Notes under the pieces: model-generated
The model's database searches: none
Seen by the model: the letters and a program-made list of their open reading frames with translations, nothing else
What the model was told of the DNA's origin: nothing
Position numbers and translations under genes: made by a program
Shown: positions 41,894 to 46,702 of the stretch, piece after piece
Layout: each line of letters begins with the position of its first letter
How positions within the stretch are numbered: position 1 is the stretch's first letter
Sequence record: PQ478073.1
Length of the DNA: 64,000 nt
Source of the DNA: a phage
Reading direction: 5' to 3' (one strand)

Positions 41894-42121
41894 ATGACAA
41901 ATACTCTTAAGTACTACCTGAATACTCTAAATGAACTAGAGTACGGTGAGTTTCTCGCAGATAGTTCGTGGCTAATTGAGCTAAAAAATTATAATAGTCC
42001 AGGATGCACCCTTATGATGAACAATGCAATTGATACCCTCATAGTAAGCATATTGCACAGCAACATCTGCGGGGATAGCAATAAACAATTATCAAAAATC
42101 TTAATACTGCTATCTATATGA
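41894..42121 (+). CDS. small protein, family S (75 aa)
   Basis: AAGGAG RBS; first of tandem array. Confidence 0.55.
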   Translation: MTNTLKYYLNTLNELEYGEFLADSSWLIELKNYNSPGCTLMMNNAIDTLIVSILHSNICGDSNKQLSKILILLSI

Positions 42122-42321
42122 ACATTGAACAGTACTACATCGATGCACTACCAACAAAAGGTCTACGAGAAAGCCTAGAGTATACACAAAATAATTTTAT
42201 ACAATTCAAACATTGTCCTAAACTCTTGAACTCGTACAGGAATAATAAAATAAGAAATGCTGTACAAGGGGTAGAAAGTATGCAATACTATTACATCCTA
42301 ACCCTTTTAATCGAGCACTAA
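42118..42321 (+). CDS. small protein, family S
   Basis: ATGA overlap; YY-x-x-LP motif. Confidence 0.5.
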   Translation: MNIEQYYIDALPTKGLRESLEYTQNNFIQFKHCPKLLNSYRNNKIRNAVQGVESMQYYYILTLLIEH

Positions 42322-42322
42322 T

Positions 42323-42532
42323 ATGAATACTGAACATAAAGAATTCTACACCAAATACCTTAGCAACGAAGAACAATTGTTTCTAAGGAGTGTATCACCT
42401 GTAAGTACCAATACTCAATTCGGTAGAGATTGCTTTAATAATTGTATACGTAGTACTCTAGAAGCAATCGAATGCAATAACAAAAATATTATGTACTCAG
42501 GTTTAATAGGACTAATATATTTCTATGAATAA
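42323..42532 (+). CDS. small protein, family S
   Basis: MNTEHKEFYTKYLS...GLIGLIYFYE; paralogue of 45921. Confidence 0.55.
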   Translation: MNTEHKEFYTKYLSNEEQLFLRSVSPVSTNTQFGRDCFNNCIRSTLEAIECNNKNIMYSGLIGLIYFYE

Positions 42533-42719
42533 TCATAAAGATTTCTATTGTAGTAAACTACCCAAACAAGAACAGCTATCATTCTCTTTAGCACCACCTA
42601 TGAGAAAGGATAATCTGTATTATAATTACGATTTCAGGATGGTGACACGTTATGCAATAGAACATCAGTTCCCTGAAACTAAGTACCGCTCTATCCTGAA
42701 CCTCATCTTTAAGTTCTAA
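42525..42719 (+). CDS. small protein, family S
   Basis: MNNHKDFY N-terminus. Confidence 0.5.
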   Translation: MNNHKDFYCSKLPKQEQLSFSLAPPMRKDNLYYNYDFRMVTRYAIEHQFPETKYRSILNLIFKF

Positions 42720-42771
42720 AAGGTACACCAGGGACCGAGTACTTTAATATAGTAAGGCTAATTACATTATA

Positions 42772-42957
42772 ATGAATCATAAAAGCTACTACTACCAACA
42801 ACTATCCGACAGAGACAAGTACAGTCACAACTCCCATGTGTGGTACTACAAACGCGGCAGTATAAGAGACAAACAACATTACTTCTGTATTTCTATTAAA
42901 GAAGCACTGACAACTAAGTACACGTACCGAGCAGTACTTAAACTTATTGAAATGTAA
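42772..42957 (+). CDS. small protein, family S
   Basis: C-terminal YRAVLKLIEM. Confidence 0.5.
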   Translation: MNHKSYYYQQLSDRDKYSHNSHVWYYKRGSIRDKQHYFCISIKEALTTKYTYRAVLKLIEM

Positions 42958-42967
42958 AGAGAATACT

Positions 42968-43150
42968 ATGAGCATTGAATTGTACTTAAGTAAATTACAG
43001 CCTGGCGATAGATTCATCTACAATAAGTTCGAATTCAACTACAAGAACGGGAGCAACAAATATCGTCGAGGATACCTATATACAAGCACAAGAGATGCAC
43101 AAAACGAAAAGTACACATACAGAGAAGTACTTAAACTAATCTCTATTTGA
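42968..43150 (+). CDS. small protein, family S
   Basis: C-terminal YREVLKLISI. Confidence 0.5.
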   Translation: MSIELYLSKLQPGDRFIYNKFEFNYKNGSNKYRRGYLYTSTRDAQNEKYTYREVLKLISI

Positions 43151-43158
43151 GGTAATAT

Positions 43159-43344
43159 ATGAATACATTTGAGTACTATACAAATAAACTATCTATGCCT
43201 GAAAGATCTCATCTCTATGTGTGGAGAAATGCGTATAAAAGCGGCAATAAACTTATACAAAGAAATTCCCTTACAGTGTGTACAAATTTAATTAAAGCAG
43301 AGTACCGCACATATATTGAAGTACTCAAACTGATAGCAATATAA
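43159..43344 (+). CDS. small protein, family S
   Basis: MNTFEYYTNKLS; C-terminal EVLKLIAI. Confidence 0.5.
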   Translation: MNTFEYYTNKLSMPERSHLYVWRNAYKSGNKLIQRNSLTVCTNLIKAEYRTYIEVLKLIAI

Positions 43345-43352
43345 GGTACTCT

Positions 43353-43532
43353 ATGCAAGAATTCTATATCTATAACCTCCAGCACAAAGATAGATACAAC
43401 TATAATAAATTCCAAAGGTACTACACAGTCGGGAACAAAAGAGATAAAAAACGATACCTACTATCATGTACAGTAGAAGCACAAAACGAAAAGTACACAT
43501 ACAGAGAAGTACTTAAACTAATCTCAATCTAA
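43353..43532 (+). CDS. small protein, family S (59 aa)
   Basis: MQEFYIYNL...YREVLKLISI; below track cutoff. Confidence 0.5.
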   Translation: MQEFYIYNLQHKDRYNYNKFQRYYTVGNKRDKKRYLLSCTVEAQNEKYTYREVLKLISI

Positions 43533-43539
43533 GGTAGAC

Positions 43540-43728
43540 ATGAACACTTTTGAGTACTACTTCAATAAACTAAACCACATAGAACAAAGTATGCACAACT
43601 CATTTATTCAGCACCATCAATCATCTGCACATGGAATTAAAAATATATCGATTGAGATTATCACTACCCGTGTACAGTCATCTGAACGTTATATGTATAT
43701 TGATGTACTGAAACTCATCTCTATGTAA
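43540..43728 (+). CDS. small protein, family S
   Basis: MNTFEYYFNKL; C-terminal DVLKLISM. Confidence 0.5.
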   Translation: MNTFEYYFNKLNHIEQSMHNSFIQHHQSSAHGIKNISIEIITTRVQSSERYMYIDVLKLISM

Positions 43729-43736
43729 GGAATAAT

Positions 43737-44967: not shown

Positions 44968-45159
44968 ATGAATAACCACAAAGAATACTACATAGAGAAA
45001 CTCCCAATGTATCTCCAACACCTTGTACCAACAGTACCATTGGGTATAGAAAAAAACTACGAAAAAGACTACTTCATTCAGTGCACTAAATCCTCGATAT
45101 ATATTGAAGACTATAATCGAGTACTGTATCACATCCTTTTACTAATATATAGGTACTAA
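44968..45159 (+). CDS. small protein, family S
   Basis: MNNHKEYYIEKLP...ILLLIYRY. Confidence 0.5.
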   Translation: MNNHKEYYIEKLPMYLQHLVPTVPLGIEKNYEKDYFIQCTKSSIYIEDYNRVLYHILLLIYRY

Positions 45160-45160
45160 T

Positions 45161-45343
45161 ATGCACAAAGAATACTACACACAATTTCTCCCCAGCATTT
45201 TTGAACACTACGCCAGATACAAAGTCCCCCTGAATAACGATTTGGCAGTACTGGGATTCAATAACTGCATAGAACGAAGTATAGAAAATAGTAGTAGTTA
45301 TGACCAGCTATATAACACTATCCTACTTATATTCAGGTACTAA
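45161..45343 (+). CDS. small protein, family S
   Basis: MHKEYYTQFLP...ILLIFRY. Confidence 0.5.
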   Translation: MHKEYYTQFLPSIFEHYARYKVPLNNDLAVLGFNNCIERSIENSSSYDQLYNTILLIFRY

Positions 45344-45344
45344 T

Positions 45345-45533
45345 ATGCATAAAGAATACTACACAAAATATTTCCCAATGTACCTCAGTACTAATCTATT
45401 AGATAAACCTCGCGGTATCAATGCACAAAACGATAAAGTGTACTTTACTATGTGCACTAAAGCATGTATACTAGATCATGACAGCTACCATCGAGTACTG
45501 TATCATACCCTGTACCTAGCTTTCGTATTCTAA
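45345..45533 (+). CDS. small protein, family S
   Basis: ATG 45345; MHKEYYTKYFP. Confidence 0.5.
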   Translation: MHKEYYTKYFPMYLSTNLLDKPRGINAQNDKVYFTMCTKACILDHDSYHRVLYHTLYLAFVF

Positions 45534-45542
45534 GAGAACAAT

Positions 45543-45728
45543 ATGCATAAAGAATTCTACTTAAGCCATCTCGATCTAAACTCCCAAATGCTTATACCAC
45601 TAATCCCAATAGATATCAAGGATAAGAAAAATACCGAACAATTCATTTACCATACACAGTGTGCGATCACCCCAAATTACATTCCATATGAATTGTACTA
45701 CATTATCGCCCTAATATATAGGTACTAA
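45543..45728 (+). CDS. small protein, family S
   Basis: MHKEFYLSHL...IALIYRY. Confidence 0.5.
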   Translation: MHKEFYLSHLDLNSQMLIPLIPIDIKDKKNTEQFIYHTQCAITPNYIPYELYYIIALIYRY

Positions 45729-45729
45729 T

Positions 45730-45915
45730 ATGCATAGAGAATACTACACACAATTTGTTAAAGGGAACTACAAATGTGCCGTACCCAGAACCCCTTTAAA
45801 TTCTCATGACCCAAGTACTATATTCTTGTTTAATGACGCAATACGTACAGTACTCAATACTAAAGATGAAGATGTGCAGTACGTATTCTTACTATTACTT
45901 ATATACAGACACTAA
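45730..45915 (+). CDS. small protein, family S
   Basis: MHREYYTQFV...LLLIYRH. Confidence 0.5.
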   Translation: MHREYYTQFVKGNYKCAVPRTPLNSHDPSTIFLFNDAIRTVLNTKDEDVQYVFLLLLIYRH

Positions 45916-45920
45916 CTAAT

Positions 45921-46130
45921 ATGAATAAAGAACATAAAGAATTCTACTCCAAATACATAAGCCCCTCAGAACAAATGTTTCTAAGGACTACTCCACCTTT
46001 AAGTACTAATACATTTTTCGGCAGAGTATGCTACAATAATTGTATTCAAATGACTTTAAACGCAAATGAAGATGGTAACAGTACTAACCTGTACTCCGGC
46101 ATCATAGGTATACTATTCCTGTATGAATAA
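45921..46130 (+). CDS. small protein, family S
   Basis: MNKEHKEFYSKYIS...GIIGILFLYE. Confidence 0.55.
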   Translation: MNKEHKEFYSKYISPSEQMFLRTTPPLSTNTFFGRVCYNNCIQMTLNANEDGNSTNLYSGIIGILFLYE

Positions 46131-46311
46131 TTACAAAGACTTCTATTTGAATACACTACCTACTGTACTTTCTCTAAGTGCTCAATGTAAAATCCCCCTG
46201 GATAATGCTTACGCCAGATATAGCTATTCCATAACTGTTAATCGATGTATAGAGAATCATTGCAGTACTAACCAGTACTATAACATAATCCTACTTATAT
46301 TCAGGTACTAA
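46123..46311 (+). CDS. small protein, family S
   Basis: MNNYKDFY...ILLIFRY. Confidence 0.5.
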   Translation: MNNYKDFYLNTLPTVLSLSAQCKIPLDNAYARYSYSITVNRCIENHCSTNQYYNIILLIFRY

Positions 46312-46312
46312 T

Positions 46313-46495
46313 ATGAATAAAGAACATAAAGAATTCTATATACGAAAACTAACATTCGTCCCCGTAAGAATATATAAAGAATGCGACCCAAGATTATACC
46401 TATGGCACTTCAATGAGTGCATAAAAGATTCTATATACCCTAAGAACTATAAAGAACAATTGTGCTCAGTACTAACACTAGTACTATCATATTAA
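46313..46495 (+). CDS. small protein, family S
   Basis: MNKEHKEFYIRKL. Confidence 0.5.
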   Translation: MNKEHKEFYIRKLTFVPVRIYKECDPRLYLWHFNECIKDSIYPKNYKEQLCSVLTLVLSY

Positions 46496-46510
46496 TTAAT
46501 AGAGAATACT

Positions 46511-46702
46511 ATGTATAAAAACTTCTATATAAGTAAACTAAAAGAAAATGAACAAGTATGGATTAGATCTATAATTCCACTGGCATTTAATAGATATGCA
46601 TTTAACAGATGTACCGAGATTGCTATAGACCCTTATAATATTAAAGAGAATGTACAGTATAATCAGTACTACTATATCTTAATGCTTATATATAGAAAGT
46701 AA
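46511..46702 (+). CDS. small protein, family S
   Basis: MYKNFYISKL...ILMLIYRK. Confidence 0.5.
   Translation: MYKNFYISKLKENEQVWIRSIIPLAFNRYAFNRCTEIAIDPYNIKENVQYNQYYYILMLIYRK

Follow-up and report, generated by a model that had tools for sequence, protein, structure and literature searches.

Why should a virus carry some twenty tandem genes for proteins of about 60 residues, and are they genes at all? The question is raised by a 64,000-nucleotide stretch of phage DNA (sequence record PQ478073.1; hereafter, the window), in which positions 41894–46702 hold 22 consecutive plus-strand open reading frames (ORFs). After start correction, these comprise 21 micro-genes of 59–75 amino acids (aa), named here s01 to s21 in order, and one 223-aa gene, g223 (43927–44598). 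By sequence, the window belongs to Asteriusvirus, i.e., to a 121Q/PBECO4-type jumbo coliphage, the array region being 94–95% identical to that of slurp01, 121Q, G17, and other phages of this genus. We find that the micro-genes are real genes under purifying selection, and that they form an expanded family that changes between phages by gene-content turnover rather than rapid sequence evolution. Their products may be host-directed binding proteins, a reading that we hold tentatively and weigh below.

The reality of the genes was assessed by counting ATG-initiated ORFs of at least 55 aa in 41894–46702 and in 300 simulated sequences of the same composition (first-order Markov). The plus strand has 22 such ORFs with 95.9% coverage, against a simulated mean of 0.83 ORFs (maximum 4) and 3.4% coverage (maximum 17.6%); the minus strand has two. 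The initial annotation, which described about 21 tiny head-to-tail ORFs broken by a lone 223-aa gene, is borne out here, including its two genes below 60 aa (both 59 aa, at 43353 and 43737). Its spacing of 0–10 nt was nearly right: 20 of the 21 junctions are at most 15 nt long, measuring −8 nt (three cases), −4, +1 (six cases), or +5 to +15, and there is a single gap of 52 nt (42720–42771). Three starts in the mechanical ORF list were upstream extensions, which we corrected using the family N-terminus together with the GenBank annotation of 121Q and SHEFM2K; the true starts lie at 42968 for s06 (instead of a TTG at 42947), 44591 for s11 (instead of 44528), and 45345 for s15 (instead of 45300).

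Are the 21 genes copies of one another? Genes were compared by all-against-all blastp and profiles by hhalign, and hidden Markov models (HMMs) were run against the 957 six-frame ORFs of the window. The blastp comparison yields two subfamilies, with E-values within a subfamily down to 1e-30. Subfamily A comprises the six genes s05–s10, with a C-terminal VLKLISI tail, and subfamily B the thirteen genes s03, s04, and s11–s21, with an N-terminal M(N)HKEYY and a C-terminal LLLIYRY. The two align with each other over nearly their full length (hhalign E 1.5e-6, probability 90%, 55 columns), and when either subfamily HMM is run against the six-frame ORFs, the top non-members belong to the other subfamily; the same search with HMMs A and B found no further copies elsewhere in the window. 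The orthologue group of s02 gives a full-length, in-register alignment with the family (hhalign E 1.2e-4, probability 55%), and an s02 orthologue from a divergent lineage matches HMM A4, built without s02, at E 5.7e-6. The s01 group aligns in register over 55 columns, nearly its full length, at E 0.032, which is its best value, so that firm membership is not demonstrable for this gene. The proposed paralogy of about 21 genes is, on these comparisons, firm for 19 of them, probable for s02, and possible for s01. A central Cys, described initially as a shared feature, is common rather than universal: it is present in 8 of the 13 subfamily B genes and, at one shared alignment column, in three of the six subfamily A genes, and the sole invariant residue is an N-terminal Tyr.

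The order of the genes on the plus strand follows this division. The array opens with s01 (41894–42121, 75 aa), a possible divergent member preceded by a strong Shine–Dalgarno (SD) sequence (AAGGAG), whose stop overlaps the start of s02 (42118–42321, 67 aa) as ATGA. Two subfamily B genes follow, namely s03 (42323–42532, 69 aa), with s18 as its nearest paralogue (blastp E 1e-30), and s04 (42525–42719, 64 aa), which overlaps s03 by 8 nt. Past the 52-nt gap lies the subfamily A block, made of s05 (42772–42957, 61 aa), s06 (42968–43150, 60 aa, the length of SHEFM2K coding sequence [CDS] 3669–3851), s07 (43159–43344, 61 aa), s08 (43353–43532, 59 aa), s09 (43540–43728, 62 aa), and s10 (43737–43916, 59 aa). 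The interrupter g223 stands between this block and the remaining subfamily B genes: s11 (44591–44773, 60 aa, the length of 121Q CDS 5210–5392), which overlaps g223 by 8 nt, s12 (44784–44966, 60 aa), s13 (44968–45159, 63 aa), s14 (45161–45343, 60 aa), s15 (45345–45533, 62 aa, the length of 121Q CDS 5964–6152), s16 (45543–45728, 61 aa), s17 (45730–45915, 61 aa), s18 (45921–46130, 69 aa), s19 (46123–46311, 62 aa, overlapping s18 by 8 nt), s20 (46313–46495, 60 aa), and finally s21 (46511–46702, 63 aa).

Database families add little to this picture. The profile phrog_11711 matches s13 (E 1.2e-27), s21 (E 7e-24), and s03 (E 1.7e-12) over positions 1–62 of its 62, and is confined to subfamily B; no PHROG match was found for subfamily A, s01, or s02. 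Pfam, searched up to E 1, gave no family for s01, s02, s03, s08, s13, or g223, PADLOC gave no match, and NCBIfam gave only a chance-level match for g223. Membership in any functionally defined family could not be shown by these sequence searches. In GenBank the genes already appear as hypothetical proteins, and PHROGs cluster part of them; we found no description of the micro-protein family or its tandem array in the literature.

How widely is the family distributed? The array was present in all 11 related loci examined, at 16–21 copies: 16 in 121Q; 17 in G17, A4, and TH47; 19 in SP27 and CMSTMSU; 20 in slurp01; and 21 in SHEFM2K and the window. A divergent metagenomic lineage has 19 copies, a g223 only 63% identical, and a different family member as its first gene. 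Among phages 90–95% identical, individual slots are present, absent, or filled by another paralogue (e.g., s07 is missing in 121Q and G17, and s18 in 121Q, G17, and SP27). The window is a mosaic, with most genes nearest to SHEFM2K, g223 nearest to slurp01 and 121Q/G17, and s11 nearest to 121Q/G17. A word-indexed search returned 73 clusters at 90% identity, whose matches with a source name or on a long contig were all from Asteriusvirus-type phages, and when 1.84 billion representative proteins were searched exhaustively with a profile, only 34 clusters at 50% identity came back, all of 59–69 aa. No relative outside Asteriusvirus was seen among matches with a source name or a long contig, the short metagenomic contigs being left untraced. 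In GAP32, which belongs to a related genus, there is a single RCC1 gene, and the syntenic site lacks a micro-gene array.

Turnover of whole genes does not extend to their sequences. Orthologues share 90–100% DNA identity, with a pooled ratio of nonsynonymous to synonymous substitution rates (dN/dS) of 0.34 (bootstrap range 0.30–0.39; N-terminus 0.28, middle 0.39, C-terminus 0.20; 0.11 for s01 alone), which indicates that the micro-genes are translated and under purifying selection. The frames are kept open in all 11 loci, including the lineage with the 63%-identical g223. Positive selection was not seen in the pooled ratio or in the variable middle, and the divergence of the array between phages is no greater than that of flanking genes. 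Paralogues share 72% DNA identity in the best pairs and 50–60% in most. The pairs s03–s04/s18–s19 and s06–s07/s08–s09 were considered as recent duplication units and rejected, being only ~65% identical in DNA, so that these duplications are old. Third-position entropy gave hints only of a nucleotide-level constraint at gene ends. The initial proposal of an expanded micro-protein family holds, as does its diversification in the sense of gene-content turnover (16–21 copies); the ongoing sequence change of an arms race is not supported, given the low dN/dS, paralogues at most 72% identical, and no excess divergence over the flanks.

What kind of protein has been multiplied? The 21 micro-proteins are, by composition, predicted to be soluble: the highest 19-residue Kyte–Doolittle mean is 1.18, the grand average of hydropathy is negative in 20 of the 21, and no transmembrane segment of ~18–20 residues was found in any of them on the Kyte–Doolittle scale. 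Their N-termini are polar (MNNHKEYY) rather than signal-peptide-like, and the hydrophobic tail spans only ~10 residues. Transmembrane proteins, holins, spanins, and exclusion-type small membrane proteins were considered as candidates and ruled out by hydropathy. The proteins are rich in Tyr, at 11.3% of residues compared with 5.7% in the other ORFs of the window, and isoelectric points (pI) run from 4.7 to 9.6. An AlphaFold2 model of s13, built on a 75-sequence alignment, has a mean predicted local distance difference test (pLDDT) score of 91.5 and a predicted template modeling (pTM) score of 0.76, with predicted helices at residues 4–9, 14–17, 30–45, and 49–62; the two N-terminal ones are short, the other two are longer, and a Pro-rich loop lies between the pairs. 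A BFVD model of a different member, obtained independently, matches it with a TM-score of 0.80–0.83. The family is therefore confidently predicted to share one compact helical fold, and this fold has no known relative: searches of the PDB gave no sequence or fold match, and BFVD returned only the family itself. Along the same lines, the family model matched no helix-turn-helix (HTH) fold, and neither an HTH or zinc-ribbon fold nor a Cys4/His metal site, as expected of small DNA-binding proteins, was found. The PDB sequence and fold searches likewise gave no similarity to a known anti-defense family (anti-CRISPR, anti-restriction, or nucleotide sponges), and no Aca-type HTH regulator was recognized in the operon by a fold search of the family model and a family search of g223, the micro-genes and g223 being the only genes it contains.

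The interrupter g223 is found in every array of the related phages. It matches phrog_29152. It has no Pfam, PADLOC, or PDB sequence match, and its AlphaFold2 model is poor (pLDDT 46), so that it was set aside as a clue to function. Its last 55 aa align in register with the micro-protein family, at E-values of only 0.004–0.012; membership is therefore not claimed, and g223 is not detectable as a member of the family.

How is the array expressed? A candidate promoter at 41840–41868, on the plus strand and 26 nt before the first ATG, consists of TTGACA, a 17-nt spacer containing the octamer CAGTACTG, and TACTAT, and agrees with the consensus at 10 of 12 positions. Both hexamers and CAGTACTG are invariant in the 11 loci, and the other spacer bases vary; the same layout recurs at other promoter-like sites of the window, many of them in its terminal-repeat part. 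In the related phage CBB, RpoD-like promoters mark the terminal repeat and a region of short genes that is regarded as early, with ATAAATA-type boxes in front of the structural genes (PMC5259590). Behind this single RpoD-like promoter, the micro-genes have weak, coupled SDs. A typical subfamily B junction reads AGG TAC TAA T ATG, and the C-terminal Arg is encoded by AGG in five of seven cases, against 7 of 54 elsewhere (Fisher p 0.002), so that part of the conserved 'RY' tail doubles as the SD region of the next cistron. Translational coupling is probable because the junctions are so short. An identical 25-nt sequence, atcctacttatattcaggtactaat, occurs at two junctions. Directly after the last stop, a long imperfect plus-strand hairpin (46714–46810; minimum free energy −37.1 kcal/mol, z −3.7) is nearly invariant in 121Q, SP27, SHEFM2K, and TH47, and has its 5′ half replaced in slurp01, G17, and A4; no covariation was seen among these relatives. 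It has no U-run and is therefore not a canonical intrinsic terminator, and it may be a 3′ stabilizer or mark the operon end. These signals suggest one 4.8-kb operon, which host polymerase would transcribe early.

The octamer CAGTACTG is itself a palindrome with 57 copies in the window, where 0.82 would be expected; they occur in both coding and non-coding DNA (e.g., at 4774, 19365, 41852, 47375, 50199, 57425, and 62811; densest at 46.9–48.7 kb). A subset of the copies lies in the spacers of sigma70-like promoters, as TTGACA-N6-9-CAGTACTG-N0-3-TATAAT.

The position of the array relative to the genome ends was taken from G17. In the G17 record, positions 1–20668 and 350150–370817 are 100% identical, an exact direct terminal repeat of 20,668 bp, and the final bases of the record align with the window starting at position 46996. 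Transferred to the window, this puts the inner boundary of a ~20.7-kb direct terminal repeat at 46996, with 46996–64000 inside the repeat. A terminal redundancy of ~20 kb has been reported from read coverage (PMC6563267). With this inner edge 293 nt past s21, the array abuts the repeat from outside and is transcribed towards it; the repeat part is rich in short plus-strand genes with similar promoters. Across the repeat, G17 has a second, unrelated array (MK327931, 343000–350052, minus strand) that abuts the other repeat copy and contains ~29 head-to-tail genes of 52–90 aa, with 4-nt overlaps, a shared 'LGTNYQE.YV' motif, and matches to phrog_4148; 181 blastp pairs among its 31 ORFs have E <1e-3. 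On a circular map, the repeat unit and both micro-gene arrays together make up ~32 kb, with ~100 short genes that all point the same way. PHROG 11711 (subfamily B) and PHROG 4148 (the second G17 array) are both listed as 'unknown function', and the tandem organization is in neither definition.

What, then, might the micro-proteins do? We propose that the array is one polycistronic operon of 22 cistrons, which host RNA polymerase would transcribe early from the conserved sigma70-like promoter, and whose cistrons would be translated by coupling, with the AGG TAC TAA of subfamily B serving as the SD region for the next gene. The products would be a clade-restricted family of soluble, Tyr-rich proteins of ~60 residues built on one compact helical fold, in which the N-terminal HKEYY..L helix, a mid-helix Phe/Cys, and the hydrophobic C-terminal helix form a conserved core and the stretch between them varies. 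They would be small cytoplasmic effectors that bind host proteins, in takeover or anti-defense, each paralogue presenting a different surface on the same scaffold. We infer from context that expression is early, that translation is coupled, that binding takes place in the cytoplasm, and that the targets are host proteins; this context comprises the promoter, the proximity of the repeat, and the absence of micro-proteins from the virion proteome of the related phage phAPEC6 (see below), all of which fits an early, non-virion, host-directed role. That these are early, cytoplasmic, non-virion, host-directed binding proteins with one scaffold and variable surfaces is our favored explanation, at somewhat under an even chance.

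Several observations weigh against it. The −10 hexamer is weak (four of six positions), and promoter-like sites are no commoner in the region than expected by chance (32 found, 35 expected). The repeat boundary was transferred from G17 to the window phage by sequence mapping. No sequence or fold similarity links the micro-proteins to known takeover or anti-defense proteins, purifying selection and old duplications are unlike an active arms race, and, for proteins of 7 kDa, absence from a virion proteome carries little weight. In addition, the micro-proteins and the neighboring RCC1-like proteins are both expanded in this genus only, which leaves room for a virion-related role.

Known systems offer partial parallels. 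The closest analogue in organization is the host-takeover module of phage SPO1, in which 26 small early genes in the terminal region encode products that bind host RNA polymerase, HU, and ClpC (PMC6873191). Both are clusters of small genes at a terminal redundancy, organized in operons behind host-type promoters, a putative one in the case of the array, and here too the proteins are small (59–75 aa) and encoded 293 nt from the 20,668-bp repeat, adjacent to it rather than inside. However, the SPO1 genes lie inside the redundancy and are not one paralogous family, whereas 19–21 of the genes described here are one family, 0.3 kb outside the repeat, and behind a single promoter. In evolutionary pattern, the closest analogues are the zinc-ribbons of Bacillus phage G and the multigene families of large eukaryotic DNA viruses. 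Phage G has ~35 zinc-ribbon copies, a lineage-specific expansion with a function that is only guessed (PMC7824862). Similarly to the micro-genes, these are tens of copies of one small domain in a single jumbo-phage lineage, but the micro-proteins have a different, unrecognized helical fold without metal ligands, and their genes are strictly tandem and in one operon. The multigene families (MGF) 100, 110, and 360 of African swine fever virus (ASFV) and the 'genomic accordions' of poxviruses are tandem paralogues near genome termini that vary in copy number and modulate host defense. The array shares with them the tandem paralogues and the copy number that varies by isolate (16–21 in nine phage genomes and 19 in the divergent lineage). 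Unlike them, the micro-proteins are far smaller, and no recent, near-identical amplification was found: with paralogues at most 72% identical in DNA, the array is not accordion-like in this respect. Finally, the early region of CBB and GAP32 (PMC5259590) belongs to the same phage group and has the same promoter logic and genomic neighborhood, but GAP32 has no micro-gene array at the syntenic site.

Could the micro-proteins instead serve the virion, through the array next door? Upstream, on the minus strand at 28484–41790, lie 11 head-to-tail paralogues encoding RCC1-like proteins of 298–402 aa, which mostly start with MLPFGRML.YGN, match RCC1 or RCC1-like beta-propeller families in Pfam, and share 23–36% pairwise identity; candidate roles for these proteins are DNA condensation or 'hairy' fibers. 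The RCC1-like and micro-gene arrays diverge from a 100-bp intergenic region, the content of both varies between phages, both are multi-copy in Asteriusvirus, and GAP32 has one RCC1 gene and no array (PMC7247149). The micro-proteins could, then, work with virion-associated RCC1-like proteins as chaperones, assembly factors, or adaptors of capsid or tail 'hairy' fibers, the two families having expanded together. The control signals differ, however. A ATTAAATATAGTATAA box (at most one mismatch) occurs at eight sites of the RCC1 array, mostly just upstream of an RCC1-like gene, and these genes have a strong AAAGGAGG SD and, in most cases, a GCCAGTAC...TACTGGC terminator hairpin; they carry late-type signals, with a TAAATA-type box each, unlike the micro-gene operon with its single RpoD-like promoter and weak coupled SDs. 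Copy numbers are unmatched (11 versus 16–21), and the second, unrelated micro-gene array across the terminal repeat has no RCC1 neighbor. The virion proteome of phAPEC6 contains eight RCC1-like proteins and no micro-protein, yet a protein of 4.7 kDa was detected in it (PMC7247149). We consider a partnership with RCC1-like proteins unlikely.

About as doubtful is a role directed at the phage itself, in which the micro-proteins would be regulators or nucleoid-associated proteins that bind DNA, RNA, or a phage sigma factor and time phage genes. Subfamily A is mostly basic, with a pI of 9.6 in four of its six proteins, and the ~35 zinc-ribbon copies of Bacillus phage G have been proposed as transcription factors (PMC7824862). 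The window also encodes, on the plus strand, an RpoD-type phage sigma factor (phrog_351, E 2e-60) at 1413–2378 and, at 16650–17324, a T7 gp0.7-like protein kinase (phrog_15752, E 1e-98), which is an inhibitor of transcription in the host.

Competition between phages is a further alternative that we regard as quite improbable, namely superinfection exclusion or an immunity-like function against related jumbo phages, in which each paralogue would match a competitor's variant. The confinement of the family to one genus would suit it, as would the cassette-like presence, absence, and replacement of genes among co-circulating Asteriusviruses and the mosaic nature of the window, but the micro-proteins have no transmembrane segment and polar N-termini unlike signal peptides, no partner toxin or target was found, and selection is purifying.

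It is highly improbable that the genes are functionless duplication relics, or that they act as DNA near the terminal repeat, as a spacer or recombination substrate: there is no functional annotation anywhere, dN/dS is near 1 in s04, s09, and s17 (and 1.7 in s13, on very few changes), whole genes are lost without killing the phage, and gene termini are conserved, but the bootstrap range of the pooled dN/dS reaches no higher than 0.39, the 21 frames are all open in AT-rich DNA, in which chance ORFs are far shorter on average, the predicted fold is confident and shared, and members are kept even in the lineage with a g223 only 63% identical.

Returning to host-directed binding proteins, a bolder extension, which we think rather unlikely as a whole, is that this array and the second array of ~29 genes are a repertoire of interchangeable micro-protein cassettes, with one scaffold and many surfaces; the conserved gene ends and coupling junctions would be the joints for swapping between co-infecting phages, and each phage's set of inhibitors would be matched to variants of host defenses or targets. 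If the micro-proteins do bind host proteins, the array would provide a ready-made set of variants on a common scaffold with which to look for E. coli targets or defense systems, and would show how a virus can diversify very small proteins through turnover of gene content and not through fast change of their sequences. If they are dispensable, they amount to no more than an orphan paralogue family. Most genes of jumbo phages, which are candidate therapeutic agents, are uncharacterized; the array is a compact and well-defined target among them.

Other features of the window deserve mention. Beyond the array, 46703–48732 is a stretch of ~2 kb without convincing ORFs and without an annotated CDS in 121Q, slurp01, or G17. 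It holds many copies of CAGTACTG, a 53-bp tandem repeat (2.6 copies) at 48536–48675, and GGCTAAACGG/GGCTAGA-type repeats at 47811–47910, and it may be a packaging or terminus region; no Rfam family was found in the window. On the plus strand between 47383 and 63717, the box TATAATGTT(T/C)TACAT has 24 copies (at most two mismatches), against 3.9 expected. Nearly all of them lie in the terminal-repeat part, where they create spurious 'MFYI...' ORF starts, and the box probably supplies the −10 and start region for a class of promoters serving the short terminal-repeat genes. On the other side of the RCC1-like genes, 25019–27799 (plus strand) holds eight head-to-tail genes of 104–141 aa, whose very hydrophobic products appear to cross the membrane several times; identity is 52% between the first and second, the third shows only a weak relationship (23%, E 0.005), and the others have no detectable similarity. 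HNH endonuclease genes lie at 3466–4254 and 22688–24112.

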